Shown: piece after piece, positions 4,108-63,241 of the stretch | Layout of the letters: each line of letters opens with the position of its first letter | Position numbering within the stretch: the first letter of the stretch is position 1 | Source: Actinomycetes bacterium | GTDB taxonomy: Bacteria > Actinomycetota > Thermoleophilia > BMS3ABIN01 | Assembly (NCBI GenBank): GCA_021787475.1 | Contig: JAJYLW010000012.1 | Location: 3,074 to 67,073 of the forward strand | DNA length: 64,000 bases | Direction: 5' to 3' | Notes under the pieces: model-generated | What the model was told of the DNA's origin: nothing | The model's input: the letters and a program-made list of their open reading frames with translations, nothing else | Database searches by the model: none | Made by a program: the position numbers and the translations under genes

Positions 4108-4135
4108 AACGCAAAACGCGAAACTCAAAACGCGA
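4108..4135 (+). repeat. 7-bp-period array (AACGCGA-like x4)
   Basis: aacgcaa aacgcga aactcaa aacgcga. Confidence 0.75.
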
Positions 4136-4145
4136 AGCTTATTTT

Positions 4146-5051
4146 ATGGTCATCGAAGCCCGGGCACTCAATAAAAGGTACGGCGACATCGTGGCGGTGG
4201 AGTCGCTCAACTTCAGCGTCGAAAAAGGCCGCTGCTACGGCCTCGTCGGCCCCAACGGCGCCGGCAAGACAACCACGATGAAGATGGTTTACTGCATCGT
4301 GACGCCGACGGCCGGCTCTTTGCGGGTGTTCGGCCTTGACGTCCGGGAGCATCCGCGCCGGATAAAGGCGCGGCTGGGAGTAGTGCCCCAGGAGAACAAC
4401 CTCGATCCCGACCTCACAACCTGGCAGAACCTGATGGTCTACGCCCGCTATTTCGGCCTGCCGCGGCAACTGGCGCGCGCTCGCTGCCGCGAGCAGCTTG
4501 ATTTTATGCACCTGAGCGACCGCGCCGACACGCCCGTGCCGGACCTCTCCGGCGGCATGAAGCGGCGGCTGATCATGTCGCGGGCGCTTGTCAACGATCC
4601 GGAGTTGATCATCCTCGACGAGCCGACAACGGGCCTGGACCCGCAGGTGCGCCACCTTATCTGGGACAAGCTGCTTGAGCTCAGGGATCGCGGCATAACG
4701 CTGCTGATGACTACCCACTACATGGACGAGGCGCAGAAGCTCTGCGATGAAATCATCATCATGGATGAAGCCCGGCGCATTGACGAAGGCAGCCCCGACG
4801 ATCTGATCCACAGGCACCTGCCCCCTTACGTGCTGGAAGTGAGGGCGGGCCGCGCGCTGGCGGCTGACATCCGCGGCCGCTTTCCGCAGATCAGCCACCA
4901 GGAGAGCGGCCGGAGCCTCTACTTTTACGGCGGCTCTTCGGCTGACTTCGACGGCATCCTGTCAACCTGGCCGCAGGTTGAGCGCGTGCTTAGGCCCGCC
5001 TCACTCGAGGACGTCTTCCTCAAGCTGACCGGCAGGGAGATACGGGCGTGA
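4146..5051 (+). CDS. ABC-2 exporter ATP-binding protein, NodI-like
   Basis: GPNGAGKTT, LSGGMKRR, LDEPTTGLD, VVPQENNLDPDL; ATG 4146 preferred as start. Confidence 0.92.
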   Translation: MVIEARALNKRYGDIVAVESLNFSVEKGRCYGLVGPNGAGKTTTMKMVYCIVTPTAGSLRVFGLDVREHPRRIKARLGVVPQENNLDPDLTTWQNLMVYARYFGLPRQLARARCREQLDFMHLSDRADTPVPDLSGGMKRRLIMSRALVNDPELIILDEPTTGLDPQVRHLIWDKLLELRDRGITLLMTTHYMDEAQKLCDEIIIMDEARRIDEGSPDDLIHRHLPPYVLEVRAGRALAADIRGRFPQISHQESGRSLYFYGGSSADFDGILSTWPQVERVLRPASLEDVFLKLTGREIRA

Positions 5052-5824
5052 GAAATGGGCTGCTGACAGTTACCCCCGCCTTTTTTAAGGTCTGGCTCAG
5101 AAACGCCCAGGTATACGTGGCGCTGCTTAAATTCAACATTATCCCGGCGCTGGTGGAGCCGATGCTTTTCATCATTGTCTTTGGCCTCGGACTTGGCTCC
5201 TACATTTCGGAGATCGAAGGCGTTCCTTACGTGAAATTCGTGGCCGCCGGCATCCTCGGCAGCGCTTCGATCATGCAAGCGACCTTTGAGTGCACTTACG
5301 GCTCCTTTTTCCGGATGAAGATCCAAAACACATTTGAGGGAATGATCTCAACGCCGATCAGCGCCGGCGAGGTTAGCCTGGCGGAGATACTCTGGGGCGC
5401 CAGCCGCGGTTTCTTCAACTCGGTGCTGGTCTTGAGCGCCCTCCTGGTTTTGGGCGTCGTCAATCACTGGCAGGCAGTTTTTGCGCCAGTGTTCATGTTT
5501 CTGGCCGCATTCAACTTTGCCGCCCTGGCGATACTGGTGACCAGCCGCATTGCCCAAATGGAGTACTTCCGCTTCTATTTCGCCGGCTTTGTCCTGCCGG
5601 CCCAGTTTCTGTGCGGCACATTCTTTCCCGTCTCCCGCTTTCCCGAGCCGGTGCAGCTGTTCGCCTGGGCAATTCCGTTTACCAGCTATGTGGACATAAC
5701 CAGGTCGCTGCTGCTGGACCGGCCCTCCTGGAGGCTGGGCCTGGAGGCAATCTACGCGCTCGCGGCCACGCTGCTCTTTACTGAGATAGCCGTCAGGAGC
5801 ATGCACAAGCGGCTCATTACTTAA
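5048..5824 (+). CDS. ABC-2 exporter permease, NodJ-like
   Basis: VWLRN, EPMLF...GLGLG, multiple TM segments, overlaps the ATPase gene. Confidence 0.9.
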   Translation: MRNGLLTVTPAFFKVWLRNAQVYVALLKFNIIPALVEPMLFIIVFGLGLGSYISEIEGVPYVKFVAAGILGSASIMQATFECTYGSFFRMKIQNTFEGMISTPISAGEVSLAEILWGASRGFFNSVLVLSALLVLGVVNHWQAVFAPVFMFLAAFNFAALAILVTSRIAQMEYFRFYFAGFVLPAQFLCGTFFPVSRFPEPVQLFAWAIPFTSYVDITRSLLLDRPSWRLGLEAIYALAATLLFTEIAVRSMHKRLIT

Positions 5825-5885
5825 ACTGATCATCCTCGCGAACACTTCTTCTTCCTGGCGCAAACAAAGTAAAATTGAAGGGATA

Positions 5886-6596
5886 ATGTTTACCGTAATC
5901 CTCCCAACCTATAACGAGTGCGAGAACCTGGAGCGGTTCGTCTCTTCCCTCAAGGAAGCTTTCCGGTCAAATGGCCTCGACGGGCGCATTATCGTCGTTG
6001 ATGACAATTCCCCCGACGGCACGGGCCGCATCGCCGACGAACTGGCAAGCTCGAACGGCCGCCTGTCCGTAATTCACCGGCCCAGGAAACGGGGAATCGG
6101 CCCCGCTTATGTGACCGGTTTCCGCGAGGCCCTGAAGACCGGCACCAGCTATATTTTTGAGATGGACTGCGATTTTTCGCACAATCCCGGCTACCTGCCC
6201 GACTTCCTCGACGCGATCAAGGAAGCCGACCTAGTATTGGGCTCCCGCTATGTTTCCGGCGGCCAGGTGGAAAACTGGGGTCTGGGCAGGCGCATGATCA
6301 GCCAGGGAGGCAGCCTGTACGCCAGGGCCATCCTTGGCGTCGGCGTTCATGACCTGACTGGCGGTTTCAAGTGCTTTCGCCGGGAAGTGCTGGAGGCACT
6401 CGACTTAAACAATGTGTCTTCGCAGGGATACGGCTTCCAGATTGAGATGACCTACAAAGCAATCAGGCTCGGGTTCAGGGTGAAAGAAATTCCGATAACG
6501 TTTTCTGACCGCCAACTGGGCCAGTCGAAAATGTCAAAAAAAATATTCCTGGAGGCGGCACCGCTGGTCTGGAAGCTGAGGCTTGGCCGGATTTGA
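5886..6596 (+). CDS. Polyprenol monophosphomannose synthase (GT2, Ppm1/DPM1-like)
   Basis: LPTYNE, VDDNSPDGTG, MDCDFSH, DLTGGFKCFRR, GYGFQIE. Confidence 0.92.
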   Translation: MFTVILPTYNECENLERFVSSLKEAFRSNGLDGRIIVVDDNSPDGTGRIADELASSNGRLSVIHRPRKRGIGPAYVTGFREALKTGTSYIFEMDCDFSHNPGYLPDFLDAIKEADLVLGSRYVSGGQVENWGLGRRMISQGGSLYARAILGVGVHDLTGGFKCFRREVLEALDLNNVSSQGYGFQIEMTYKAIRLGFRVKEIPITFSDRQLGQSKMSKKIFLEAAPLVWKLRLGRI

Positions 6597-6635
6597 TGCC
6601 TGCGGAACCGGAATCCTTTCCTGTCTCCGGCACTG

Positions 6636-10590: not shown

Positions 10591-10706
10591 TGTGATTAAT
10601 CAAACGTTAGAGTTCCGACTTTTAAAAACTAAAACAAATATAACGTTTGTCAAGTAACGTTATGTTATTGACTTTTCGTTCAGCAATCCAAATCCGCATT
10701 CCGAAT

Positions 10707-11276
10707 TTAAACAAGCACCCTCAGTCCCTTGTATTTCATCTTCTTGAGCCGCCGCACCCTCAGCGCCAGCCAGACGACAAGCAGAAAAACCGGATATCCT
10801 GCCGGGGGCAGCAGCATCATCGGGACTGCCAGGACCAGTACCGAGAAATCGAGCGCCGCCCCCGGGTCGGACCCCCCCGCGGTGATTGTTAGCCCTTGGC
10901 GAACGTACATGCCCATCAGCGCCAAGACGGCGCCGGCCGGCAGCGCCGCCAGATAAACGGGTCCGCCCACTTCTCCCGAAACCGGAGCGGTAAGCAGCAG
11001 GGCCCCGGCGGCGACGGCAAGGGGCAAGCGCAAGAACAGGCCCAGCCTGTCAAGCAGCGGCAGGTAGCTTATGGCAATCTCAAGGGCGATCAGCGCGATC
11101 AGCACGGCGATAGCGCCAACGGATTGCATGAAATTCAAGGGCGTCCCCTGAGTCCGGAATCCCCAGGCCCAGCCAAACCTGGCGAAGAAAATAAAGACGG
11201 CCAGCGGGATGGAGGGACGCACCCCGGCAAGCGCCGCCAGCCCCGCACCGGCCCCAATTGCCCAAACGGTTGGCAT
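10707..11276 (-). CDS. DUF4126-like membrane protein
   Basis: GLAALAGVRP, hydrophobic helices, C-terminal KYKGLRVL. Confidence 0.65.
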   Translation of the reverse strand: MPTVWAIGAGAGLAALAGVRPSIPLAVFIFFARFGWAWGFRTQGTPLNFMQSVGAIAVLIALIALEIAISYLPLLDRLGLFLRLPLAVAAGALLLTAPVSGEVGGPVYLAALPAGAVLALMGMYVRQGLTITAGGSDPGAALDFSVLVLAVPMMLLPPAGYPVFLLVVWLALRVRRLKKMKYKGLRVLV

Positions 11277-12705: not shown

Positions 12706-12747
12706 AATGGAGTCCGGATTTTGGATATTGGATGCCCGACGCTTGAT
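12706..12747 (+). repeat. 7-bp-period array (NNYGGAT-like)
   Basis: aatggag tccggat tttggat attggat gcccgac gcttgat directly after the stop codon. Confidence 0.65.
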
Positions 12748-13755: not shown

Positions 13756-13777
13756 TTTGCATCCACCATCCTTTTTT

Positions 13778-13853
13778 TGGCGCCCCGAGAAGGAATCGAA
13801 CCTTCGGCCTACCGCTTAGGAGGCGGTCGCTCTATCCCCTGAGCTATCGGGGC
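13778..13853 (-). tRNA. tRNA-Arg (anticodon CCT)
   Basis: 76 nt cloverleaf: GCCCCGA/TCGGGGC acceptor stem, ACCGC-CTCCTAA-GCGGT anticodon arm, GGTTCGATTCC, encoded CCA. Confidence 0.97.
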
Positions 13854-13866
13854 CCATAAATCGGGT

Positions 13867-14020
13867 GATGGATTTTAGATGTCGAATTTTGGATATAAGA
13901 TAAACCGGATACCGGATGCGATTCCGGCTCCTGGAAAACTCAACTCCTGTGAAAACAATTAAGGGTAATCTCTTGTCAGGTTATTATCCAGAATCCGGTG
14001 TCCAGAATCCAGGATCCGCT
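13867..14020. repeat. Two oppositely oriented 7-bp-period arrays in a divergent intergenic region
   Basis: GGAT-type units 13867-13917; ATCC-type units 13986-14020. Confidence 0.7.
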
Positions 14021-14085
14021 TTACATTGCATATCGAGACGCGATGAACTAGGATGCTTTTCAATGACCGCAGCGAATCTTAAGTT

Positions 14086-16760: not shown

Positions 16761-16795
16761 AACTTTGAACTTTGAACACGGAACTTGGAACCCGG
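16761..16795 (+). repeat. 7-bp-period array (AACYYKG x5)
   Basis: aactttg aactttg aacacgg aacttgg aacccgg, 13 bp before the ATG. Confidence 0.75.
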
Positions 16796-22248: not shown

Positions 22249-22283
22249 TTGCGTTTCGCGTTTCGCGTTTGGTGTTTCGCGTT
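22249..22283 (-). repeat. 7-bp-period array (AACGCGA on minus strand, x5)
   Basis: ttgcgtt tcgcgtt tcgcgtt tggtgtt tcgcgtt. Confidence 0.8.
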
Positions 22284-30188: not shown

Positions 30189-31103
30189 TGCGGAATTGGG
30201 CATTTGCTCATGCGCCATCGCTCTCAGGATCTTGATCCGCTGCTGGATTGGCGGATGGGTGTCGAACAGGCCGCGGGAGCGCTTCTCGAATTTCTTGATC
30301 GGCTGGGCGATATAAAGGTGGGCTGTGGCGCGGTTGGCAGCCGCCAAAACCTCATTATCATCGGCGATCTTCTGCAAAGCATCGGCAAGGCCATCGGGGT
30401 CGCGGGTCAGCTGAACTGCCGACGCATCAGCAAGCAACTCGCGCTTGCGGGATATCGCCAGCTGGACAAGGCGGGCGGCGATGGGAGCGAGAACGGCCAG
30501 TAGCAGAGCCACCACCAGCAAGATCGCGCCAAGGGCGCCGCTGTTATCGTCATTGCTGCGCCGCCCGCCGCCAAACAGGGTCCAGCGCAGGAAAAAGTCA
30601 GCCATTAGCGCAATCGCTCCGACCATGATTCCCACCAGCGTCGCAAACAGGATGTCGTAATTGCGCACGTGCGACATCTCGTGAGCGATTACACCCTGCA
30701 GCTCCTCGCGGTTCATCTTTGCCAGGAGCCCGGAAGTCACGGCAATTGACGAGTGTGCCGGGTCCCTGCCGGTGGCGAAAGCGTTCGGAGCCGCGTCGTC
30801 GATAATGTACAAGGACGGCATCGGGTTGCCCGAGGCAATGGACATCTCCTCGGCCACGTTGAACAGCTGCGGCGCATCGTCATGGCTCACCGGCCGGGCG
30901 TGGCTGACCGCCAGCACCATTTTGTCACCCTTGTAGTAGCCCGCCGACCCCATCGCAATCGCGATCGCCAAGGCAATGGCAAGGCCGAACCAGCCAATGC
31001 CGATCGCCATCCCGACCGCGTAGCCAAGCACAATCAGCAGCGCCGTCACAATCACAATCAGGAAATAGGAAAGGTGCTTATTCTTTGCTATCTGTTCATA
31101 CAT
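30186..31103 (-). CDS. htpX: M48 zinc metalloprotease HtpX
   Basis: PNAFATG, HEMSH, SRKRE..AD, THPP; downstream of lemA. Confidence 0.93.
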   Translation of the reverse strand: MYEQIAKNKHLSYFLIVIVTALLIVLGYAVGMAIGIGWFGLAIALAIAIAMGSAGYYKGDKMVLAVSHARPVSHDDAPQLFNVAEEMSIASGNPMPSLYIIDDAAPNAFATGRDPAHSSIAVTSGLLAKMNREELQGVIAHEMSHVRNYDILFATLVGIMVGAIALMADFFLRWTLFGGGRRSNDDNSGALGAILLVVALLLAVLAPIAARLVQLAISRKRELLADASAVQLTRDPDGLADALQKIADDNEVLAAANRATAHLYIAQPIKKFEKRSRGLFDTHPPIQQRIKILRAMAHEQMPNSA

Positions 31104-31110
31104 AAACCCG

Positions 31111-31145
31111 GATGGTAGATGGTGGATGGTGGACGATGGATAAAA
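31111..31145 (-). repeat. 7-bp-period array (CACCATC on minus strand)
   Basis: gatggta gatggtg gatggtg gacgatg gataaaa, 7 bp before the htpX ATG. Confidence 0.75.
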
Positions 31146-31180
31146 TCAAACAAAACCGGGTTTTTATCCGAATTGCCTGT

Positions 31181-31735
31181 TTACCGCAGTTCCACCTTGA
31201 CTGGTTCTTTTTCCTCTTCGGGCACTTCGAAGTATTCGCGGGCCCTGAAGCCAAAAATCCCGGCGATTACGTTTGAAGGGAAGGTCTGCACCCGGTTGTT
31301 GAAACTCATCACCGTATCATTATAAAGCTGCCGCGCAAAAGAAATCTTGTTTTCGGTAGAAGTCAGCTCTTCCTGCAACTGCGAAACATTCTGGTTGGCT
31401 TTCAGGTCGGGGTAATTCTCCGCGACCGCAAACAACGATTTCAGCGCTCCCGTGAGCATGTTCTCCGCTTTTGCCGAGTCGGCAGGCCCCTGGGCCTGCA
31501 TCGCCTCCGACCGGGCCTTTGTCACATTTTGCAGCACTTCCTGTTCGTATGACATGTAATCCTTGACCATCTCCACCAGATTTGGGATCAAATCATGACG
31601 GCGTTTGAGCTGAACGTCTATCTGGCGCCAGGAATTGTCAACTTTGTTGCGCGATCTTACAAGGGAGTTGTAGATGCCAATCAGGATGGCAATCAGCAAG
31701 ACAACCGCCACGATGACAATGATTGAGACTATCAA
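31181..31735 (-). CDS. lemA: LemA family protein
   Basis: [41 protein letters not shown]. Confidence 0.96.
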
Positions 31736-33911: not shown

Positions 33912-35354
33912 ATGGGGAGCCTGCCCCGGCCGTCACCGAGATTCTCCTTCTTTTATTGCTTCGCTTTTTTCCTTCTGATCGCGGCTTTTCTGGCCGCCGG
34001 GATTGCCGCCATTGATAACAGCTGCCTGGACGCTGCCGACGGAGCCTACCTGATATCCGGAAATGCCGTCGCCCATGGGCTTTTCCCTTACCGGGACTTT
34101 CTCGCCGCCCACCCTCCCGCCATCTACCTGCTGGGAGGGTTGCTGGCCCGCCTGGGAAAAGGCGTGGCTCCATTCCGCATCTTCTCCCTGCTTTTAAGCG
34201 CAGGTTTGGGCCTTGCCGTTTGGCGGCTGGCGCTCAGGATCACAGGCAAACGCGCCGAGGCGTTGCTTGCCGGGACGCTGGCAATGTTCGCCCCCCTCGG
34301 GGTTTATTTCTCGAAACTCTATTTAAACGATTCCATGGTGGCGCTCCTCACCGCCGCCACTTTCTTCCTCCTCCTGGGCGGCTCCCGCCGTCAGACAGCT
34401 GCGGCAGGAGCGCTGTCCGTAACCGGTATGCTGACCAAGCTGACATATTTCCCTGTGCTGGCGGCGGCGGTTGTGTTTGTCCTTGTCTGGCGGCGCGCGC
34501 AGCTGCGCCTTTTCCTGGGGGTGGCGTTTATTGGCGTAGCAGTTACGGCGCTTCTTCTGGAAGCGTTCACAAGCGGCGCCTATCTGGCGGACATCATTGG
34601 CGCCCAGGCGAGCAAGGGGGCCAGCTTCGCCAATTTTTACGAAGGGATGCACCGTATTTGGCAAATGGATTGGCCCCTGCTTGTGCCGGCCGCCGGCGGG
34701 CTCTGGTTTTCGATCAGCGATCTTGCCGGGAAAAAGAAGGACACTGCCGGGCATCGGGAGGGTCAGGCGCTGGTGCTGCTCTGGTTGGCGGCAGGCCTTG
34801 CCTCCCTGGCCACTCTCCCCGCTGAAGGTCATGACACCAACCTGTTTCAGGTGGCCGAGCCTGCAATCGCCATCCTGGCCGCAACCGGCCTTGGCCGCCT
34901 TGCCAGGGGGCGTATTGCCCTGGGCCCCGCCGTTGCGGTGGCTCTGATGGCGGTAATGTTTCCGGCCATTGCCGTAAAGGACCGCTCGTTTCTGACACGC
35001 AGCAATGCATCCGTGACGGCGGCGATCGTGGCGGAAATCGATAGCGCCGCTAGGCCCGGCGATCAGGTTCTGGCGCCGGGTTGCCCGGCGCTGGAGGCCG
35101 GTAGGCCGGTGGCGGATAACTTTTTTGACCAGTTCCTGTGGGAAGAAAAGTTCAAGCGGGGAGACAGCGATGCCACAAAGCTTTTCCTTGGCATTGCCGG
35201 GGAAATAGGCTCGGGACGGCTGCCGGCGGTTGCCTTCCAGCAGGGCCAGCCCAGCCAAAGCATATTCCTAAATCAGCTTCAGCGGCATTACTACCCGGTC
35301 CGCTTCCCGGACAAGGTAACCCCGCCGCTAACTCTCTGGCTGCTGAAAAAATAG
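33912..35354 (+). CDS. GT-C membrane glycosyltransferase (ArnT/GT39-like)
   Basis: DGAY, G..PYRDF..HPP, many TM helices, TK motif. Confidence 0.75.
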   Translation: MGSLPRPSPRFSFFYCFAFFLLIAAFLAAGIAAIDNSCLDAADGAYLISGNAVAHGLFPYRDFLAAHPPAIYLLGGLLARLGKGVAPFRIFSLLLSAGLGLAVWRLALRITGKRAEALLAGTLAMFAPLGVYFSKLYLNDSMVALLTAATFFLLLGGSRRQTAAAGALSVTGMLTKLTYFPVLAAAVVFVLVWRRAQLRLFLGVAFIGVAVTALLLEAFTSGAYLADIIGAQASKGASFANFYEGMHRIWQMDWPLLVPAAGGLWFSISDLAGKKKDTAGHREGQALVLLWLAAGLASLATLPAEGHDTNLFQVAEPAIAILAATGLGRLARGRIALGPAVAVALMAVMFPAIAVKDRSFLTRSNASVTAAIVAEIDSAARPGDQVLAPGCPALEAGRPVADNFFDQFLWEEKFKRGDSDATKLFLGIAGEIGSGRLPAVAFQQGQPSQSIFLNQLQRHYYPVRFPDKVTPPLTLWLLKK

Positions 35355-35388
35355 TTCCGGGTTCCGGGTTCCGGGTTCCGGGTTCCGG
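35354..35388 (+). repeat. Perfect heptamer tandem repeat (GTTCCGG)5
   Basis: Five exact copies starting at the last base of the stop codon. Confidence 0.95.
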
Positions 35389-37340: not shown

Positions 37341-38570
37341 TCACTTTAGCTCCGTAAACAGTTTCAGGTAATCCCTGAGCAGCCTCGGAGCAAGAAAATT
37401 GGCGCGCACATGCTCTTTGCCGGCCCGGCCCATTTCCTTCGCCTCCTCCGGATGGTCAAGCAGCCACATTGAGCGCTCGGCGCATTGCTCGACCGAGTCC
37501 ACCAGAAAGCCGGTCCGGCCATCCTCGATCTGGGTGGGGATGCCGCCGACATTGCCGCCCACGGTCGGCTTGACCTTCCAGAGTGCTTCGCTGACCGTGA
37601 GTCCGAATCCTTCCCGGAGCGATTTCTGGATGACAACATCGGCACGTGATTGAAATGCATTCACCTCCAGATTGCCAACGTTATTGAGATTTGACAATAT
37701 GAGCACGTCGCCGTCATCACCGGCATGCTCGACCGTGTTGGTGAAAAAGCTCCATCCCTCCGGGTCATCGGTCGCCATTGACCCCACCAGCGCCAGCTGC
37801 ACCGAGGCAAACTCTTTCTTCACCATCTTGTAGGCGTCGATCACGCCGAGCGGATCTTTCCAGGGATCAAACCGGGAGACCTGCAAAAGCAGTGGCGGCC
37901 CTGGCTCCAGCCCGAACTGGCTGACCACATAATCAGCATCTTCCGGTGAGAGAGCCATGTTCTTCGTTGACAGGGGGTCAATCGCCGGCATGAATACGCG
38001 CACCGGAATATTGAGTCCTGACAAAATGTACCCTTCGATGCTGAAAATGGCGGTGTCATAAAGCTGAATGTGAGGGAGCAGGTAATCGGCAAGCTGCCGG
38101 TGGGGTGAAGACGTGTCGATATGGCAGCGCCAGACCCAACTGGCTCCCAGGTCCCCGGCAAAATGGCGCAGCAGCAGCGGCTGCGGATCGTGGACGACAA
38201 TGAAATCAAACCCGCCGCCGAGAGACTGGGCGGCGAGCCGGCTCTGCTCTTCGTAGACCTCTGTTTGAGTTGCATTCAGGCCGGAAGAGCTGCCCTGCAA
38301 GCAATTGTGAATAACCTTGGTTGCTTCGTAAAATTCCTGGGGCGCCATGATTACGCGCCAGTCCGTGTCCAGGCCGACATCCCGCATCAGCGGCACCAGC
38401 GTATAGAGGATCTCGGCGACGCCGCCGCCAAACGAAGTAGCGTTGATATGAAGGATCCGTTTTCCCTTCAGGGGCTCGGCCAGGTCCCTGATCTCCTCGA
38501 TCAGCGGTTTTACCACCACGCTTTGATAGTCGGCCAATGACTTATGGCCGACATGAACTTCTTGCAGCAA
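37341..38570 (-). CDS. treT: Trehalose synthase TreT-like GT4 glycosyltransferase
   Basis: NATSFGGGVAEIL, HDPQP, WRCHID, QVSRFDPWKDP, QKSLREGFGLTVSEA. Confidence 0.85.
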   Translation of the reverse strand: MLQEVHVGHKSLADYQSVVVKPLIEEIRDLAEPLKGKRILHINATSFGGGVAEILYTLVPLMRDVGLDTDWRVIMAPQEFYEATKVIHNCLQGSSSGLNATQTEVYEEQSRLAAQSLGGGFDFIVVHDPQPLLLRHFAGDLGASWVWRCHIDTSSPHRQLADYLLPHIQLYDTAIFSIEGYILSGLNIPVRVFMPAIDPLSTKNMALSPEDADYVVSQFGLEPGPPLLLQVSRFDPWKDPLGVIDAYKMVKKEFASVQLALVGSMATDDPEGWSFFTNTVEHAGDDGDVLILSNLNNVGNLEVNAFQSRADVVIQKSLREGFGLTVSEALWKVKPTVGGNVGGIPTQIEDGRTGFLVDSVEQCAERSMWLLDHPEEAKEMGRAGKEHVRANFLAPRLLRDYLKLFTELK

Positions 38571-39810: not shown

Positions 39811-40779
39811 CTAAAACGCCTTTCCAAACTTGTCTTTCAGCCTGCCAATGCCTGCGTCGACAGCGGCGACCACCTGCGCCGCCAGCTCAGCATTTGCGGC
39901 CGCAATGCAGGACATTTGATATTCCGCCCCCGAGCCAAGCAGAAGGCGGCTGTCCAGCGGCCGCCCGCAGCCGTCAGCAAAAAATATGCCGGCTTCGCGG
40001 GCAATCAGCCCGGCCGCGGCCAGGTCATGAGGAGAATTGTTGAGCACCGCCCCCTTGCCCACTTCCTCGAACAGTCTCTTGGTTTCGGGAACCTCATCAA
40101 TCATCCTCGGCCCGATGTCAACATAGGCGTCAAGCTGCCCGGTGAGGATGCGAGTGATGGAAAAAGTGGCGCTGCCCAGGTCAAACACGGCGCCATCAAC
40201 TGAAGAACGGTCGACAAGATCTCCCAGGGTCTCGATCAGCGCCCGCGCCGGACGGCCGCGAAAGCCTATCGTCCAAAAAAGGCGGTTCAGTTCGGTATTT
40301 TCTGACAAATTGACCGGTGCCGCTTCGCCGCCTGGCGCCGTGATTGTAACGCCGCCGTTGCGGACTGCGGTAAAAAGGGCGCCGCTCTTGATCTCCCGCA
40401 GGCAGCCAAAGACAACGTCGCCCATCGTTGGCTTTTCCTTAAGCTCGGCAACCGCTATCGAGACCATTGCCCCTTCCAGCCCCGCGGCGGCGGGGCGGGT
40501 GCCGTCAACCGGATCGACAATGAGGATATGCTCCGGCTCGCCAAACTTGAGCAGGCCCCGGTCTTCCGAGTACATGGCCACATTGGCCCCCTGATCCTCC
40601 AGATAACCGACCAGGAAGTCTTCCGCGACCTCATCAATGGCAAATGTTACGTCGCCGCCAATAGCGGTGCCGGCATGAACGCGGGCCTCAGCCCGGCCCA
40701 GCTCAGGCAATACCTTCTTCCTGATTGCCGCCGAGAGCTCGACCGTCATGTCCTGGATGTTGATAGAGGCGCGGCTCAC
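39811..40779 (-). CDS. Inositol monophosphatase / FBPase family protein
   Basis: GDVTFAID..AE, SED, DPVDGT, DLAAA..IAREAG. Confidence 0.85.
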   Translation of the reverse strand: MSRASINIQDMTVELSAAIRKKVLPELGRAEARVHAGTAIGGDVTFAIDEVAEDFLVGYLEDQGANVAMYSEDRGLLKFGEPEHILIVDPVDGTRPAAAGLEGAMVSIAVAELKEKPTMGDVVFGCLREIKSGALFTAVRNGGVTITAPGGEAAPVNLSENTELNRLFWTIGFRGRPARALIETLGDLVDRSSVDGAVFDLGSATFSITRILTGQLDAYVDIGPRMIDEVPETKRLFEEVGKGAVLNNSPHDLAAAGLIAREAGIFFADGCGRPLDSRLLLGSGAEYQMSCIAAANAELAAQVVAAVDAGIGRLKDKFGKAF

Positions 40780-40801
40780 GGCGGATAGTATACCTTATTT
40801 A

Positions 40802-40858
40802 GAGCCTGTCTCAGTAGGCAACTCGTGGCGAGGTCGAGCGAAGGCCATCGCTCTCGCC
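40802..40858. repeat. MITE-like structured repeat, copy 2 (partial)
   Basis: GAGCCTGTCTCAGTAGGCAACTCGTGGCGA aligns without gaps to 7141-7170; internal hairpin. Confidence 0.6.
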
Positions 40859-40861
40859 GGT

Positions 40862-42025
40862 CTAGGCGGCGCCGAGGATGGGGAAAACTTTCTTTTGGAT
40901 CAGCTCGATCGACTTGCGCGCGGCCGCGCGGGCTTTTTCCTGATCGCTTGGCGGAATGGGCGGCGCCTCTTCCCTGACCAGGTATGCCGGCGCCGGCCCG
41001 TGCTCGAACCGGGCGCACGCCTGCCGCCATTCTTCCGGGATGCGATCGTCAAGCTTTCTGCCGGCAATCACTGACGCCAGTACGGTCCAGGCGCGCGGCA
41101 CCGTCGTGTAAGCCTGGTAACCACCGCCGCCCAAAGCCAGCCAGCGGCCGGCGGCAAATTCGTGGACGAGCCTGTGCTCGCGGCGGAAAAGCTCCTGAAA
41201 GCCGGCCATCGTCAGAGCAAGGTGGGAAAGCGGATCGGACCAGTGGGCGTCGCAGCCATTCTGTGTTACCAAGATGTCGGGCGCAAATGCGCGCGCGAGG
41301 GGGAAAACCAGCTCGTCAAACACCTCAAGGTAGATTTCGTCGCTGGAGAAAGGAGAAAGCGGCACGTTAACAGCGTAACCGGCTCCTTCACCCCTGCCGG
41401 TATCTTCTGCAAATCCGGTGCCAGGGAAAAGGCAAGCGCCCGATTCATGGATTGAAACTGTCAGCACCTGCGGATCGTCCTCAAAGGCATACTGAACGCC
41501 GTCGCCATGATGCGCATCGATATCCAGGTAGAGGACGCGGGCGACTTGGCGGGCCTTAAGATCGGCAATCGCGATTGCCGGATCGTTATAGATGCAGAAG
41601 CCGGAAGCCCTTGCTCTGAGCGCATGGTGGAGGCCGCCTCCCATGTGAAAGGCGTGGGCAATTTCGCCGTCCACGATTTTGCGCCCGGCGACCAGGGCGC
41701 CGCCAACGGCAATGGCGGCAGCCGTGTGCATGCCAGCAAAAACGGGATTGTCGCCGGTCCCCAGGCCCCAGCCGTAGCCGGCCAGGCCTTCCGCCCCGGC
41801 GACGCTATTCTCTTTGACTTTTTCAATATAGGCGCGGTCATGGACAAGCGCCAGCTCATCATCCGTAGCCGGCCCGGGCTCAACCAGGCGCATAACGTCC
41901 AGCAGGCCGTAGGCGCGAATGAGTTCATAGGTCAGAGCCAATCTCACCGGCTTCATTGGATGCCAGGGACCGAAGTCGTATTTCTGGTAGCTGCCGCTGT
42001 AGATGAGGGCGGAGGTATGGGGCAT
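40862..42025 (-). CDS. acuC: Acetoin utilization protein AcuC / Zn-dependent deacetylase
   Basis: HPMKPVR, GTGDNP, GGLHHA, SGFCIYND, DIDAHHGDG, FPGTG, GGGGY. Confidence 0.92.
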   Translation of the reverse strand: MPHTSALIYSGSYQKYDFGPWHPMKPVRLALTYELIRAYGLLDVMRLVEPGPATDDELALVHDRAYIEKVKENSVAGAEGLAGYGWGLGTGDNPVFAGMHTAAAIAVGGALVAGRKIVDGEIAHAFHMGGGLHHALRARASGFCIYNDPAIAIADLKARQVARVLYLDIDAHHGDGVQYAFEDDPQVLTVSIHESGACLFPGTGFAEDTGRGEGAGYAVNVPLSPFSSDEIYLEVFDELVFPLARAFAPDILVTQNGCDAHWSDPLSHLALTMAGFQELFRREHRLVHEFAAGRWLALGGGGYQAYTTVPRAWTVLASVIAGRKLDDRIPEEWRQACARFEHGPAPAYLVREEAPPIPPSDQEKARAAARKSIELIQKKVFPILGAA

Positions 42026-42029
42026 GGCG

Positions 42030-42070
42030 TCGCGTTTCACGTCTCGCGTCTCGCTTTCACGTTTCGCGAA
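42030..42070 (-). repeat. 7-bp-period array (RACGYGA on minus strand)
   Basis: tcgcgtt tcacgtc tcgcgtc tcgctt tcacgtt tcgcgaa. Confidence 0.75.
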
Positions 42071-42072: not shown

Positions 42073-42101
42073 ATTATAGGGGCTATTGACTGCCTGTCAA
42101 T
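42073..42101 (-). promoter_or_regulatory. Consensus sigma-70 promoter for acuC with an overlapping inverted repeat
   Basis: TTGACA-N16-TATAAT on the minus strand; ATTGAC-N5-GTCAAT at 42085-42101. Confidence 0.75.
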
Positions 42102-43461: not shown

Positions 43462-43577
43462 AAATGCTACCTATATCAAAAATGAGCGCCGGAGGAAAAT
43501 TTGATGATTGTCTGATGCCTCATACCGTACTGTAAACCATTATACTCGCTACGGAACAAACTCCAATATAGAACCGG

Positions 43578-43602
43578 TTAAGAGAAATTAAGAAATGTTA
43601 AG
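43578..43602 (-). promoter_or_regulatory. Three direct repeats (CTTAA, 10-bp period) upstream of htrA
   Basis: TTAAG at 43578, 43588, 43598; TATATT -10-like box just downstream on the minus strand. Confidence 0.55.
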
Positions 43603-43761
43603 TTGACATATCTACAAAGCATGCCAGAAAAAACCGGATTCCTTGATTCTGGATGCTGGATTCCGGGCAAACATTCATCCAGCGATTGCCGCCTAACGCC
43701 AGGAACTGGCCCAAAGGGCAAGCGCCCGGCCGAGAGCAGCCGAAGACGCCTGATGGGGCTC

Positions 43762-46433: not shown

Positions 46434-46467
46434 TCCAAAATCCAAAGTCCAAGTCCAATATCCACTA
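46434..46467 (-). repeat. 7-bp-period array (TTGGA on minus strand)
   Basis: tccaaaa tccaaag tccaag tccaata tccacta abutting the stop codon. Confidence 0.7.
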
Positions 46468-47199
46468 TTAAGCAAGTCCGCGCTCGCGCAGCCAGAGAAG
46501 CCCCTCGTAAGCCTTTTGTCGCGGCATCTCAAAAGTAATGGTAACTTCCTGGGAAAGCGTTTTTAAAGCCGCGAGAATGGGAGCAAAATCGATCCTGCCT
46601 TCTCCCAAGGGCAGGTGCAGATCCTCATAGTACGTATCGCCTCCCACATTGTCATGAATATGGACATGGCCAATCCGGTCCGGATAGCTGCCAATGAAGT
46701 CCAGCGATTTGTTCCTTTCGCTCAGAAGCTCACTGTGGCCGATGTCCACTGTCAGCACCACATCAGGAAGAGCGCTTAGCAGCGGTTGCATGTCGGCGGC
46801 CGCCTCGGCTGTGTTCTCGCAGGCAATCCGGGAGCCATAGCTGCCGGCAACCTCCTGCAGGCGCCCGATCTCGCGCAGCTTTGTTTCAATTGACCCCGGC
46901 GTGTTCGAGAACGGCGCCAGAATAGGATGGATCGTGATTGTCCTCGGCTTAAACACGGCCGCGTATCTGACTGCTTCTTCGATTTTGGCAATTCCTTCCG
47001 GACTGTCCACCCTGAGATCAGGCCCGTGGGCAACAAAGAACATGCCGGCTTTCCGGGCCGCTTTTAATATCTGGCGCTCTTCCCGGCGGACTTTGTCAAT
47101 CTCGTTCAGATTCAGGTCGGCGAAATCAAACCCGTGCCCGGCCAGGAAGGCAATGCCCTCGAGGCCGGCGGCCTGGCCGCCAAAATCAAGCTTTCCCAT
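46468..47199 (-). CDS. Sugar phosphate isomerase/epimerase (AP-endonuclease-2 TIM barrel)
   Basis: HGP, CEN, DIGH, HVHIHDN, DLHLPLGEG.IDF, FE. Confidence 0.85.
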   Translation of the reverse strand: MGKLDFGGQAAGLEGIAFLAGHGFDFADLNLNEIDKVRREERQILKAARKAGMFFVAHGPDLRVDSPEGIAKIEEAVRYAAVFKPRTITIHPILAPFSNTPGSIETKLREIGRLQEVAGSYGSRIACENTAEAAADMQPLLSALPDVVLTVDIGHSELLSERNKSLDFIGSYPDRIGHVHIHDNVGGDTYYEDLHLPLGEGRIDFAPILAALKTLSQEVTITFEMPRQKAYEGLLWLRERGLA

Positions 47200-50623: not shown

Positions 50624-50650
50624 ACCGGATGTTGGACTTTGGATAAAACC
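50624..50650 (+). repeat. 7-bp-period array ending in GGATAAAACC
   Basis: accggat gttggac tttggat aaaacc directly after the stop codon. Confidence 0.6.
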
Positions 50651-50786
50651 AGCGAACCGAGGATGAGAGTCCCCGGTTTTTTTGCCAGTCAGCATAAACA
50701 AATATTCACCTCTTTGGCATATTTGCGGTTTTTCTGTATAATTGCGCGGTTAAATCAGGCCTGAACATCCAACCTTGTGAGCCTTC

Positions 50787-58389: not shown

Positions 58390-58545
58390 AAGAGATTTCC
58401 TTTCCTGATTTCATTTTCAAACTACTGCCAACAATCTGGTTGGCATCAATTCTGAATATAGCTGCCTATGGTTTTAATGCGTCAACCGAACAGTCAAAGT
58501 TATCCGTCACCTCAGTTTCCGGTTTCCCGTTCCCGGTTACGACAA

Positions 58546-58573
58546 ATTATGGATAACATTTACCATTTGTCAA
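58546..58573 (-). promoter_or_regulatory. Internal sigma-70-type promoter before rpsR with an overlapping DnaA-box-like site
   Basis: TTGACA-N16-CATAAT; TTATCCATA overlaps the spacer and -10. Confidence 0.5.
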
Positions 58574-58607
58574 ATAACACTGATTTTGATTATGATTCTT
58601 GGGTTTT

Positions 58608-58640
58608 GGTTTATCCAAAATCCAGCGTCCAGGATCCGGT
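58608..58640 (-). repeat. 7-bp-period array abutting the ssb stop codon
   Basis: ggttt atccaaa atccagc gtccagg atccggt. Confidence 0.7.
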
Positions 58641-59700: not shown

Positions 59701-60513
59701 ATGCCTGCAGATTTCATCACATTTTTAAGCGACTTCGGTTACGCCGACGATTTTGTCGGCACCTGCCACGGAGTTATCAAGACAATTGCTCCGGGTGTGG
59801 AAATAATCGACATTACGCATGGCGTTCGCCGCCATGACGTTCAAGGCGGCGCGCTCATCCTGGCAAACACGCTGCCCTACATGCCCGAGAGCGTCATCCT
59901 GGCAGTGGTTGATCCCGGAGTTGGCTCCGGCCGCCGGCCGCTGGCGATTCGCACCGCCGCCGGCCGCTACCTGGTGGGCCCGGACAACGGACTGCTGTCA
60001 CTGGCTGCGAAAAAACTGGGCGGGGCCGCAGAAGCTGTCGAGCTTGCCTGTTCATCATACAGCCTGCCGGAGGTTTGCAAAACGTTTGAGGGACGGGACC
60101 TGTTCGCGCCGGTGGCTGCCCACATTTCCCTGGGAGTGGGGCTGGGGTCCCTGGGGGCGCCTGTGGCGCCGGAAAGCCTCCAGCTAATCGAGCTGCCCGC
60201 TCCTGCCGTGGGAAAAGGCGCGGTTAGGGCCACAGTCATTTACATCGACCGGTTTGGCAATGTGCAGCTGAACCTGAAACGCAGTCAACTGGAGGAGGCA
60301 GGCGCAAAGGCAGGCTCAGAGGTGCTGGCCAGCCATGACCAGGAAAGCTGGCTTGTTCCTTTCGTCTCCACGTATGCTGACGTGGAGCCGGAGAATCTGC
60401 TCATCTTTGAGGATTCATACCGCAATATTTCTTTTTCGGTCAACCAGGGCAGCGCCGCCCGCATCTTCCAGATCCAGGTTGGCGATGAGATGAAGTTTTC
60501 TGTGCCGGCCTGA
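59701..60513 (+). CDS. SAM hydrolase / SAM-dependent halogenase family (DUF62)
   Basis: FLSDFG, DITH, VVDPGVG, GPDNGLL, TFEGRDLFAP, IDRFGN. Confidence 0.9.
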   Translation: MPADFITFLSDFGYADDFVGTCHGVIKTIAPGVEIIDITHGVRRHDVQGGALILANTLPYMPESVILAVVDPGVGSGRRPLAIRTAAGRYLVGPDNGLLSLAAKKLGGAAEAVELACSSYSLPEVCKTFEGRDLFAPVAAHISLGVGLGSLGAPVAPESLQLIELPAPAVGKGAVRATVIYIDRFGNVQLNLKRSQLEEAGAKAGSEVLASHDQESWLVPFVSTYADVEPENLLIFEDSYRNISFSVNQGSAARIFQIQVGDEMKFSVPA

Positions 60514-61431: not shown

Positions 61432-61487
61432 GGGCGGCCCGCGGGCTCCTCCGGGAAGGAATTTGGCTTTCTCGCACCGCCCGGCTT

Positions 61488-62525
61488 TCAGGCGCTGATC
61501 TTCAGAACCTTGGCGCCGCGGATTTGGCCGGTCTTGAGTTCGTACAGGACCTGACTCGCCTCCTCGAGCTGAAACACCTCGACCTCCGGCCGGAAACCGG
61601 CTTCCACCGCCAGTTCCAGCATCTCGCGCACATCCCTTCTGGCAACGTTGGCGACGCTTTTTATCTCCTTTTCCATCCACAGGTGCGTGGGATAGTCGAT
61701 GCGCAGCAGGCTGTCCTTGTCCGCATCTTCCTTGCGGATGGCGTTGATCACCAGTCTTCCCCCTGGCCCAAGGTCATTCAGGGACTCGACGACAGGTTTC
61801 CAGACCGGTGTGGTGTCGACGACGGCATCGAGCTTTCGCGGCGGGTCGGCGGCGGTGTCTCCGGCCCAGACAGCGCCAAGCTCCCGGGCGAACTCCTGCT
61901 CCTCCTGGCTCCGGGCGAAGACAAAAACCTCGGTTTGCGGCTGAATGTGGCTGAGCAGCTTCAGCATCAGATGGCCGGAGGCGCCGAAGCCCGTCAGGCC
62001 GAGCCGGCCGCCGTCGGCGACGCCGGAGAGACGCAAGGAGCGCCAACCGATGGCGCCGGCGCACAGCAGAGGCGCCGCTTCGGCGTCCGATAGGGCGGAG
62101 GGAATGGGATAAGCGAAATCCTCCAGAACGGTCATCAGTTCGGCGTAGCCGCCATTGACATCCCGTCCGGTCGCTACAAAATCCGGGCACAGGTTCTCGT
62201 TGCCGCCGGCGCAGTGCCCGCAGCTGCCTTTCCCGCAGGCCGAATAAATCCAGGCGACGCCCACCCGGTCGCCGGAACTGAAACGGCCGGAGCCGGGACC
62301 GTGGCCGACCACGCGGCCCACCACCTGGTGGCCCGGCACCACGGGCAGTCGAGGCGGGGGCATCCTTCCCTCGATCTCGTCGAGCTCAGTGTGGCAGACG
62401 CCGCAGACGGACACCCTGATGAGGATCTCTCCCTTTCCGGGGACGGGGTCGGGGAGTTCGACCGGCTTCAGGGGGGACCGGTCCTCGGCGAAGCTGACGA
62501 TCCTGTCGATGACCATTGCGCGCAT
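61488..62525 (-). CDS. Zinc-dependent alcohol dehydrogenase family
   Basis: CGVCHTELD, PGHQVVG, structural Cys cluster, PLLCAG, GFGASG. Confidence 0.92.
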   Translation of the reverse strand: MRAMVIDRIVSFAEDRSPLKPVELPDPVPGKGEILIRVSVCGVCHTELDEIEGRMPPPRLPVVPGHQVVGRVVGHGPGSGRFSSGDRVGVAWIYSACGKGSCGHCAGGNENLCPDFVATGRDVNGGYAELMTVLEDFAYPIPSALSDAEAAPLLCAGAIGWRSLRLSGVADGGRLGLTGFGASGHLMLKLLSHIQPQTEVFVFARSQEEQEFARELGAVWAGDTAADPPRKLDAVVDTTPVWKPVVESLNDLGPGGRLVINAIRKEDADKDSLLRIDYPTHLWMEKEIKSVANVARRDVREMLELAVEAGFRPEVEVFQLEEASQVLYELKTGQIRGAKVLKISA

Positions 62526-62771
62526 GGCGGCATTGCTTTCGTCGTGATTATGCTTTTATCATGCCCAGGTCTTGCCCGCAGCGCCTCTTATGATAAACCA
62601 TCATTGGGGCGGGTCGCCGCCGTGCCCCTTTTTCCGAAAAAACAGCCCTGTAGTGGTCCACCGGCTGGAAGGAGGCTAATGCCGAAATCTTCTTTATGCC
62701 CTTTTCAAGTTGGTCTAAAATGAGAAGTTCAAATTGCGAACGATGGCGCCCTTTCCCCGGAGGTTTCATGC

Positions 62772-63176
62772 ATGACTGAGATAAGACTTTCAACCAAAAA
62801 GCGGACGGAGCTGATCGACATCACGGCAAAGGTGGGCGACGCGGTTGCGGCAGCCGGCATCGTTTCGGGCCTGTGCGTTGTTTACGTGCCGCATACGACT
62901 GCCGGCGTCATCATCAACGAAGGAGCTGACCCGGCTGTCAGGATTGATATTGCCGCATATTTTGACAGGCTTGTCCCCTGGGACAACGATTACCGCCACA
63001 TCGAAGGCAATGCAGCGGCGCATATCAAGGCGGCGCTCGCCGGGTGCTCCGTTTCAACCCTGGTCGAAAAGGGACGGCTCATGCTGGGGACATGGCAGTC
63101 GGTTTATTTCTGCGAGTTCGACGGCCCCCGCTCACGCAAGGCAACAGTCCGGATAATCCCGGCGCCAGGCCCGTAA
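62772..63176 (+). CDS. yjbQ: YjbQ/UPF0047 secondary thiamine-phosphate synthase family
   Basis: HTTAG..INE.AD, H.EGNAAAH, LGTWQ...EFDGPR. Confidence 0.93.
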   Translation: MTEIRLSTKKRTELIDITAKVGDAVAAAGIVSGLCVVYVPHTTAGVIINEGADPAVRIDIAAYFDRLVPWDNDYRHIEGNAAAHIKAALAGCSVSTLVEKGRLMLGTWQSVYFCEFDGPRSRKATVRIIPAPGP

Positions 63177-63200
63177 CTTTTAAGCTTTGGGTTTGGGATT

Positions 63201-63241
63201 GGTTTTATCCGACATCCGGCATCCAGGATCCAGTATCTGGT
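63201..63241 (-). repeat. 7-bp-period array after the lipoprotein stop codon
   Basis: ggtttt atccgac atccggc atccagg atccagt atctggt. Confidence 0.78.

Follow-up and report, generated by a model that had tools for sequence, protein, structure and literature searches.

The stretch analysed here, referred to as the window, is a segment of 64,000 nt (G000:C29:3074-67073, with window coordinates counted from its first letter) in the metagenome-assembled genome (MAG) of an uncultured member of the Actinomycetota, G000, which comprises 1,841,141 bp in 36 contigs, with 58.4% G+C and a completeness of 98.7%. The genes of the window for which an earlier note had proposed names fit the corresponding Pfam families (ABC ATPase, DUF4126, aminotransferase, GT4, NTP transferase, M48/HtpX, PMT_2 (GT-C), histone-deacetylase/AcuC, TIM barrel, YugP, SSB, S18 and radical SAM), the check covering all but the "lipoprotein" at 63245-63880, and the naming of a tRNA-Arg is confirmed by ARAGORN and Rfam. 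Between these genes lie short tandem arrays of degenerate 7-nt units, and these arrays, of which there are some 280 in the genome, are the subject of this work. Heptamer tandem repeats in the intergenic DNA of bacteria have been known since about 1990. The note had listed 16 sites in the window, had held that they avoid coding sequences (CDSs) and are oriented by start and stop codons, the sense strand being G/T-rich directly after a stop and A/C-rich ahead of a start, and had offered two explanations, an undescribed system of RNA-level punctuation or the scars of a small element that inserts at gene boundaries. Both are weighed below beside the possibility that the arrays are the arms of palindromic elements.

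On inspection of the sequence, each of the 16 sites holds three to five degenerate units at 7-nt spacing. Tandem Repeats Finder (TRF), at a score of at least 30, recovers nine of them (4108, 13986, 16761, 22251, 31110, 35354, 42030, 46434 and 58515), a stricter lag-7 test adds the site at 63206-63237, and six are visible by eye alone as GGAT or ATCC every 7 nt (10685, 12706, 13867, 43633, 50624 and 58613). The proposed orientation is true at 15 of the 16, the array at 43633 being ambiguous, as had been stated. That none would lie inside a CDS was nearly right, since TRF finds just two short period-7 rows within the CDSs of the window (41345-41359, 2.1 copies, and 59927-59945, 2.7 copies), which is chance level.

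In the genome as a whole, period 7 is the commonest tandem period, with 336 of the 1289 TRF rows, period 6 accounting for 121 and period 8 for 75. With genes called by a rough in-house hexamer-based caller, which under-calls (1622 genes, 83.5% coding) and whose starts are approximate, the period-7 rows are divided into 256 intergenic, 17 mixed and 63 coding, while the same classes amount to 21, 0 and 54 at period 8 and to 7, 0 and 114 at period 6. A stringent lag test, which requires at least 80% self-identity at lag p across 3p positions and excludes shorter periods, leaves 97 intergenic and 18 coding tracts at period 7 (97/115 intergenic), and between 0 and 5 intergenic tracts at each of the periods 5, 6 and 8 to 12. 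The genome-wide scan that the note had proposed thus sets period 7 apart, well beyond chance, and its remark that the units differ while the period stays at seven is borne out as well, as the 336 rows reduce to 107 canonical units. ACCATCC (40) leads, followed by AAACGTG (24), AAACGTT (23), AACTCGG (21), AGCATCC (14), AAACGCG (12) and AATCCAG (11), and a few unit families recur 20 to 40 times. When rows of period 7, 14 and 21 are merged, 364 arrays result, 282 of them mostly intergenic; the longest period-7 tract measures 113 nt. The strand given for an array is, throughout, the one that reads G/T-rich.

The orientation was counted for arrays not more than 30 nt from a gene end. At the stop side of CDSs the sense strand is G/T-rich in 71 cases and A/C-rich in 16, and at the start side it is A/C-rich in 56, G/T-rich in 7 and neutral in 10; the start/stop rule is followed by 128 of the 150 arrays near CDS ends, and by 148 of 170 once tRNAs count as genes. 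It holds in every gene-pair context (follow:against 24:1 for ">>" stops, 13:2 for ">>" starts, 36:2 for "<<" starts, 34:12 for "<<" stops, 14:4 for convergent stops and 7:1 for divergent starts) and across the unit families (ATCC-type 47:1, AAACG-type 35:5, GAACY-type 7:2, ATTCC/ATTCG 2:0, other 57:14). Of the 22 arrays that break the rule, most either belong to the leader of the following gene where the spacer is very short, or are T-rich GAACT-type arrays that the composition measure mis-scored, and beyond 60 nt from a gene end there is little orientation bias. The rule is replicated in 296 kb of the congener G001 (37 vs 6, with 65 intergenic and 8 CDS period-7 rows) and in 92 kb of G009, of another genus of the same family (6 vs 0, with 16 intergenic and 2 CDS rows), in contigs that were picked for having hits to the GGAT pattern described below and in genomes which, being related, are non-independent samples.

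The polarity is clearest at the tRNA genes, 45 of which are found by ARAGORN. All 20 oriented arrays at their ends follow the rule (11 vs 0 on the 5′ side, 9 vs 0 on the 3′ side), and the mean lag-7 self-identity of the flanks is 0.46 (5′) and 0.36 (3′), against 0.20-0.27 at lags 5, 6, 8 and 9. An identity of at least 0.5 at lag 7 is reached by 22 of the 45 5′ flanks (18 A/C-rich, 4 G/T-rich) and by 13 of the 45 3′ flanks (12 G/T-rich, 1 A/C-rich), the control lags 6 and 8 giving 1 and 0; of the four G/T-rich 5′ flanks, those at C15:76552 and C14:26777, at least, are the trailer of the preceding tRNA. By eye, (ATCCACC)n-ATCTGCTTTTT immediately precedes about 25 tRNAs and AAAAGCAGAT(GGTAGAT)n immediately follows about 17; several others, some of them first in a cluster, have TATAAT about 10 nt upstream and lack a 5′ array. 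About eight of ten tRNA-tRNA spacers fold as a single hairpin from an A-run to a U-run, at -24 to -45.5 kcal/mol, a layout that recalls an intrinsic terminator, but with the U-run abutting the next tRNA. As tRNAs are untranslated, the polarity cannot be due solely to ribosome binding or to the avoidance of start codons, and as they are the genes most heavily flanked, the link of the arrays would be to transcript boundaries in general. The punctuation idea is therefore sound in its geometry, which favours transcript boundaries, but needs correcting where it takes the arrays to be oriented by translation signals.

In fact, the start/stop rule is algebraically the same as one that is blind to gene direction: outward from any gene end, the G/T-rich strand is read, in other words, on the top strand the array adjoining the left gene is G/T-rich and the array adjoining the right gene is A/C-rich. 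By itself, then, it is no evidence of orientation by start and stop codons, and it follows automatically if the arrays belong to a palindromic element, since an inverted pair reads alike on both strands. Spacers with two arrays (46 pairs) have the order G/T-A/C in 29 cases, G/T-G/T in 11, A/C-A/C in 6 and A/C-G/T in none; the arms of 17 of the 29 G/T-A/C pairs form a duplex of -15 kcal/mol or better, over loops of 3 to 117 nt. Counting every pair from both arms, 48 of the 264 oriented arrays can be matched to a complementary partner, which in every case lies 3′ of the G/T arm (0 of 264 on its 5′ side). The order is repeated in the samples of G001 (8 G/T-A/C vs 0 A/C-G/T) and G009 (7 vs 2). It is the strand symmetry of the polarity, together with this strict sequence of G/T and then A/C, that favours a palindromic element over translation signals. 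Two families make the anatomy visible: ACGTTTN/NAAACGT arrays form near-perfect hairpins immediately after stop codons, and GGAT-type arrays consist, outward from the gene end, of an A-run, (C/G)C(A/G)GAT, (NNNGGAT)n and AAACC-type units, the reverse complement of which abuts starts.

The arrays turn over quickly, as the comparison of orthologous loci proposed in the note reveals. A pattern of four GGAT-N3 units occurs 20 times in G000, and in its congeners 36 (G001), 24 (G002), 12 (G003), 7 (G005) and 0 (G004) times; in other genera of the family it is found 14 (G009), 2 (G008) and 1 (G010) times, and in the remaining 33 of the 41 genomes searched, G004 included, not at all, the reversed pattern used as a control scoring 0 in all 41. 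Arrays have been gained or lost between congeners at each of five loci: (i) the array at 46434 is found in G000 only, being absent from the orthologous spacers of the five congeners; (ii) that at 43633 has the same relative place in G003 and G005 and is missing in G001 and G002; (iii) the spacer 31103-31181 carries arrays with differing units in G000, G001 and G002 and none in G003, G004 and G005; (iv) the ssb-rpsR spacer holds a whole promoter-bearing cassette, described below, in G000 alone among six genomes, this one clear insertion having no recognisable target-site duplication, as its flanks are too diverged to show one; (v) and finally, between tRNA-Glu and tRNA-Val an array hairpin occupies the spacer of G000, G001 and G002 (-24, -41 and -39 kcal/mol), the spacer measuring 5 nt in G003 and being array-free in G004 and G005. 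In this last case the units are GGTAGAT (G000), GCTGGAT/TCTGGAT (G001) and TTTGGAT/CTTTGGA (G002), and the arms are complementary within each genome.

The loops can contain cargo. The intervening sequences (IVS) of 23S rRNA consist of an inverted-repeat stem enclosing a loop that can hold a PF05635 gene, and are excised from the RNA by RNase III. The profile of this four-helix-bundle 23S rRNA IVS protein, PF05635, is matched once in each of G002, G003 and G015, and not at all in G000 and G001; in G003 and G002 the gene lies in the loop between a G/T array and a complementary A/C array. Such a location makes the polarity of the arrays about this gene the reverse of that about resident genes, as a hairpin element predicts and a rule on the composition of untranslated regions does not. 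The four-helix-bundle genes flanked by the same units that the note had suggested looking for are thus found at one locus in each of two congeners, while as an obligatory partner the gene is rejected for G000. The likeness to the IVS has its limits, because the elements of G000 lie between protein or tRNA genes and not in rRNA helices. A gene for RNase III is present in G000.

Another cargo is a promoter. A conserved sigma-70-type site, TTGACAAATAGTAAATAATC..TATAAT, has 23 copies in G000 at up to four mismatches, usually preceded by a GGAT array and AAACC units running from the previous stop, and followed by TTTTCG(GAACTCG)n. A co-oriented CDS comes after 20 of the 23, and 18 of 19 scanned proteins encoded downstream have Pfam families, which are mutually unrelated: UvrC, glutamine synthetase, FtsA, a laccase-domain protein, an ABC-2 permease, an Fe-S flavoprotein, Sua5, AcpS, NnrD/YjeF, an aldo-keto reductase, the Pol III delta′ subunit, enolase, RuvC, RuvB, a GGDEF protein, a histidine kinase, ThiS and an aminotransferase V. 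More generally, 25 of 264 arrays have a promoter-like site within 70 nt, a figure that falls to 8 of 264 in the control; the distance from the end of the -10 element to the first A/C-rich unit is 3 to 7 nt in 11 arrays (0 in the control orientation), and the three best promoter matches between 41 and 60 kb of the window all adjoin arrays. Many leader arrays come to within about 10 nt of the start codon, and a Shine-Dalgarno (SD)-like 5-mer precedes 5 of the 68 starts next to an array, compared with 257 of the 1072 remaining starts. The cassettes split pairs that are usually co-transcribed, namely ssb|rpsR, ruvC and ruvB, and acpS|nnr, in such a way that these genes may have promoters of their own; in the window copy, the predicted promoter drives rpsR. 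The splitting copies are at window 58390-58640, at C31:36560 and C31:37870, and at C16:63544 and C16:64037 of G000. The longest array of the genome, (GGAACCC)n with at least 11 perfect units (C1, about 37440-37560, - strand), is directly downstream of a cassette promoter, ahead of uvrC. With these two kinds of loop cargo, promoter and IVS-type gene, the arrays are tied at once to rRNA intervening sequences and to promoter-bearing MITEs (miniature inverted-repeat transposable elements). In practice, they mark gene ends and transcription starts, which helps in annotating MAGs of this lineage.

The novelty claimed in the note does not stand, as the polarity had been reported before from two other phyla. 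Rehm et al. (2015; PMC4692102) described 186 and 183 arrays of GGGAATC/(GGGANTN)n in two xanthomonads, and similar GGGGAYT arrays in Nostoc, 89-93% of them intergenic, with the G-rich strand antisense upstream of open reading frames and sense after stops, and with 70-75 convergent inverted pairs; transcription was seen for most of the repeats, array length differs from species to species, and the authors, who found no function, proposed G-quadruplexes. Here and in what follows, published systems are described after the available portions of the papers cited. G000 shares with these cases tandem and often heterogeneous 7-nt units, typically about four, in hundreds of arrays per genome of which about 90% are intergenic; a G-rich strand that is near the gene on its 5′ side whatever the gene direction; many convergent inverted pairs; and length and sequence that vary between related species. 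It differs in its phylum and in its units, which are without G3-4 tracts and in several families without any G-runs. The STRR heptanucleotide repeats of heterocystous cyanobacteria are likewise non-coding tandem heptamers of several unit types; their sequences presumably differ from those of G000, and neither polarity nor hairpin geometry was found published for them in the part of the literature searched. What is new relative to the described cases, as far as the available text of the papers cited goes, is the actinomycetotal host, the many families that obey the rule without G-tracts, the dense flanking of tRNAs, the strict order of the arms and their concerted change, the dispersed 23-copy promoter cassette and the IVS-gene cargo, of which tRNA flanking, cassette and loop cargo have no counterpart in the account that PMC4692102 gives of Xanthomonas and Nostoc. 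Neither heptamer arrays flanking tRNA genes nor any in Actinomycetota MAGs appeared in the literature searched, which included no search specific to the Actinomycetota.

The account that we favour, while giving it slightly less than an even chance, is that the arrays are the arms of modular palindromic spacer elements, specific to this lineage, that would provide genes with GU-rich trailers, AC-rich leaders and inter-gene hairpins. The anatomy, the polarity, the turnover and the cargo are observed. A full element reads A-run, G/T-rich array (GGATNNN, ACGTTTN, CGAGTTC and others), loop, complementary A/C-rich array and T-run, and it fills the spacer between two genes, so that each arm abuts a gene end; the loop is a few nucleotides long or houses a cargo, be it the promoter of the cassette with its 23 copies, a conserved hairpin of small size or the PF05635 gene of two congeners. 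The rest is inferred: the arrays would have arisen and changed by replication slippage with a preference for 7 nt, and the two arms would have been kept alike by arm-to-arm copying or by selection for pairing. RNAs ending in the spacer would carry a GU-rich trailer, those begun at a loop promoter would have from their +1 an A/C-rich leader with few start codons and no SD site, and read-through RNA would fold into a hairpin of 20 to 35 bp, a punctuation between tRNAs and cistrons which may serve as a processing site (RNase III-like), as a 3′-end stabiliser or as an insulator. Transcripts of the arrays were sought in three metatranscriptome runs of the same study, where the single 34-nt partial contig match says nothing about expression.

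Several results weigh against these palindromic elements. Most arrays are without a complementary partner nearby, and the arrays that flank the cassette promoter, GGAT-type on one side and GAACTCG-type on the other, are not complementary, so that the hairpin cannot explain every array. The sense strand has no folding advantage over the antisense strand (better in 11 and 15, respectively, of 26 hairpins; p = 0.62), and there is thus no sign of strand-specific selection at the RNA level, as through G-U pairs, a palindrome at the DNA level being just as good a fit; and where a spacer is divergent, as at window 13854-14030, neither of the two transcripts would include both arms. Gene calls and start sites rest on the crude caller. 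Pairing between leader and trailer across a gene or tRNA is unsupported: the leaders of tRNAs pair with their own trailers no better than with those of other tRNAs (-15.15 vs -15.70 kcal/mol, p = 0.80), and among 14 genes with arrays on both sides, nine are of the form A/C|gene|G/T and only four of those nine reach a duplex of -15 kcal/mol or better. Nor is there a signal of the arrays acting as substitutes or companions of canonical intrinsic terminators, which a simple scan finds neither enriched nor depleted near them (6/61 vs 81/965). In the same kind of scan, canonical terminators with hairpin and U-run are rare in G000, being found in 87 of the 1026 spacers that follow a CDS. Three further ideas were dropped by eye, since the common units do not fit them, namely stop codons in all frames, complementarity to the anti-SD and similarity of the units to the T-loop.

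Among the alternatives, the likeliest, though itself unlikely, takes the arrays not for arms of hairpins but for single-stranded RNA elements under selection for their composition or for protein binding. In such a case the A/C-rich leaders would favour SD-independent ribosome loading or the binding of S1- or Csp-like proteins, and the GU-rich trailers would protect 3′ ends or bind another factor. The model comes from marine Beggiatoaceae, where MacGregor (2015; PMC4679880) described 169 sets of TAACTGA repeats, mostly just upstream of SD-less starts, and proposed the binding of S1, Csp or CsrA. The resemblance includes heptamers a few nucleotides upstream of starts without a canonical ribosome-binding site, unrelated downstream genes, ribosomal protein genes among them, and a patchy distribution among lineages; the reading is also supported by the facts that most arrays of G000 are unpaired, that leader arrays begin at the predicted +1, and that SD-like motifs are scarce at array-adjacent starts. 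The TAACTGA repeats, however, have a single unit, are mostly upstream in forward orientation with one inverted set, and show neither trailer arrays nor an association with tRNAs in the available description; of the 107 canonical units of G000, the 60 commonest do not include TAACTGA. Furthermore, the untranslated tRNAs, with arrays at about half of their ends, present the stronger polarity (20 vs 0), the PF05635 cargo genes are arranged oppositely, and the many different units that obey the rule are hard to square with a single sequence-specific binder.

Distinctly unlikely is an origin in a transposase-driven miniature inverted-repeat transposable element (MITE), of the REPIN or Correia kind, inserting at gene boundaries with heptamers as its terminal inverted repeats. 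The presence and absence of arrays at orthologous spacers would be expected of it, as would the 23-copy cassette that carries a conserved promoter spacer ahead of unrelated genes and splits conserved operons, and the defined ends of the modules (A-run, then SCRGAT); the Correia/NEMIS elements also carry promoters, and their transcripts form long stem-loops that have been proposed as RNase III targets (PMC2229807). Small intergenic inverted repeats with filled and empty sites between relatives are, then, common to both. In G000, by contrast, the arms are tandem arrays that vary with the locus, and even between species at one locus, unlike the copies of a single element; the many unit types differ from the one conserved REP of 20 to 40 nt in inverted doublets; and neither TA ends nor a target duplication has been seen, the flanks of the one clear insertion, at ssb-rpsR, being too diverged to show one. 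The Y1 (RAYT/IS200-type) transposase PF01797 does not co-vary with the arrays, with one match in G000, none in G001, G002, G003 and G005 despite their arrays, and five in G004, which has no hit to the GGAT pattern, and it is rejected as the driver. The idea of a small element is thus compatible with gain and loss and with the cassette. The sole Y1 match of G000 is at C35:53940-54263, in an open frame of 224 aa.

An extension of the palindromic reading across phyla is improbable. The heptamer-array hairpins of Xanthomonas, Nostoc and this actinomycetotal clade would all be self-propagating, IVS-like "spacer introns", spreading by slippage and arm-to-arm copying, with promoters or S23p genes as loop cargo and with excision by RNase III. 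If the extension were true, hairpins of this kind would be a general punctuation separating tRNAs and cistrons, and would explain a puzzle of the STRR type that is 35 years old.

It is quite improbable that the arrays are neutral by-products of 7-nt slippage, with a polarity due to purifying selection against harmful orientations, for instance those that would place start codons or SD-like G-runs in leaders. The high turnover between congeners speaks for such an origin, and heptanucleotides are the most abundant class of long simple repeats in many bacteria, for which polymerase slippage has been blamed (Mrazek, 2007, as cited in PMC4679880 and PMC4692102). Nevertheless, the polarity is equally strong at the stops of convergent spacers and at both ends of tRNAs, a few families recur time and again, the order A/C then G/T is never seen in G000, and the arms remain complementary while their units change.

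Finally, structures of the G-quadruplex or i-motif type that modulate transcription near gene ends, the main published hypothesis (for Xanthomonas and Nostoc), are highly improbable and are rejected as a general cause of the polarity, for, in spite of the two GG runs in each GGATGGT-type unit and of a geometry that matches PMC4692102, the rule is independent of G-tracts, holding where an array has under four GG runs (85 vs 20) as well as in the AAACG/ACGTTT family without G-runs (35 vs 5), and no unit of G000 has the G3-4 tracts of the published motif.

The features of the window are collected in the table.

Features of the heptamer-array system in the window
Feature	Coordinates	Strand	Evidence and context
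(AACGCRA)x4 array	4108..4136	-	TRF; A/C-rich toward ABC-ATPase start 4146 (Pfam)
Degenerate ATCC/TTCC array	10685..10708	-	by eye, missed by TRF; abuts DUF4126 gene stop
GGAT-type array	12706..12736	+	by eye; directly 3′ of aminotransferase stop 12704 (Pfam)
2-unit ATCCACC array with T-run	13759..13777	-	between CDS stop 13755 and tRNA-Arg 3′ end
tRNA-Arg(CCT)	13778..13853	-	ARAGORN; Rfam 70.1 bits; arrays on both sides
GGAT-type array	13867..13901	+	14 nt upstream of tRNA-Arg 5′ end; hairpin left arm
ATCCRGN array	13986..14017	-	TRF; upstream of radical-SAM gene (start 14086, Pfam); hairpin right arm
GAACTYG-type array	16761..16795	-	TRF; 14 nt before GT4 start 16809 (Pfam)
GCGTTTC array	22249..22283	+	TRF, lag test; A/C-rich toward NTP-transferase start 22230 (- strand; Pfam)
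GGATGGT array, then AAAAYC units	31110..31141	+	TRF, lag test; 7 nt from M48/HtpX start 31103 (- strand)
Perfect (GTTCCGG)x5 array	35354..35388	+	TRF, 100% matches; overlaps PMT_2 (GT-C) gene stop (Pfam)
TCGCGTT/TCACGTT array	42027..42068	+	TRF; 5′ leader of AcuC-like gene (ATG 42025, - strand; Pfam)
Predicted sigma-70-type consensus promoter, TTGACA-16-TATAAT	42073..42100	-	12/12 matches, best promoter hit
GGAT-type array	43633..43667	+	by eye; >90 nt from any called gene end; ambiguous case
TCCAAAR array	46434..46464	-	TRF; abuts stop of TIM-barrel gene (46468-47199, - strand; Pfam)
AAAAACCGGAT(NNNGGAT) module	50624..50650	+	by eye; directly 3′ of YugP-like stop 50620 (Pfam)
Promoter-like site	50714-50742	+	11/12 matches; downstream of 50624 array, ahead of next gene
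CGGAAAC-type leader array (read on - strand)	58512..58538	+	TRF; in rpsR leader
Dispersed promoter cassette copy (TTGACAAATGGTAAATGTTA..CATAAT), one of 23	58546..58573	-	11/12 promoter matches
ATCC-type array	58613..58640	-	by eye; abuts ssb stop
ATCCRNN array preceded by GGTTTNN units	63207..63237	-	lag test; convergent spacer, abuts - strand gene stop at 63245

The surroundings of the tRNA-Arg gene illustrate the arrangement: on its sense strand the array at 13759..13777 is a AAAAAAGGATGGTGGATGC trailer and that at 13867..13901 is A/C-rich, and this second array pairs with the one at 13986 over a loop of 85 nt, the whole of 13854-14030 folding at -52.5 kcal/mol (z = -2.6). The DUF4126 gene occupies 10707-11276 on the - strand, and the array at its stop is G/T-rich on the sense strand of the gene (Pfam). 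The -10 element of the promoter at 42073..42100 ends 4 nt ahead of the array, which would therefore begin at about +1, and in the rpsR leader the array at 58512..58538 starts 7 nt past the -10 element of the cassette promoter. The array at 58613..58640 reads on the sense strand as AAACCGGAT(NNNGGAT)n followed by AAACC units, that is, as the upstream part of the promoter cassette.

At its gathering threshold, an Rfam scan of the window gave only tRNAs and no other RNA family. One of these matches, of 60 nt at window 1530-1589 (-), just 3′ of the stop of a copper-ATPase gene, scores 32.2 bits (gathering 29) and is not called by ARAGORN; it could be a tRNA cut short or a remnant resembling one. 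Elsewhere in G000, the 230-nt spacer between tRNA-Gly and tRNA-His (C14:26853-27082) holds a tRNA-like stretch (GTAGCTCAACTGATAGAGC...), likewise not called by ARAGORN.

The heptamers are not the only repeat family: a palindrome of about 65 nt built on GTCATYCTGAGCGAAGCGAAGGATC, unrelated to them, has three good and three weak copies in G000, after stop codons and within the loops of array hairpins. It is found in G000 at C19:15597-15619, C25:409-431 and C31:63448-63470, and in the loops of the tRNA-Lys to tRNA-Glu spacers of G001, G002, G003 and G005, with a degenerate copy in G000. Another palindromic repeat, AAGAATCTATCTCAAAAGGC ... GCCTTTTGAGATAGATTCTTAA, is inserted in several orthologous spacers of G001, and a fragment related to it lies at window 40790-40850, in the spacer 40779-40862. 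Lastly, a run of TTAAG(A) direct repeats (GTTAAGAGAAATTAAGAAATGTTAAG) at window ~43575-43625, upstream of the gene that follows a histidine kinase gene, is conserved in all six congeners and has the appearance of a putative binding site for a response regulator.

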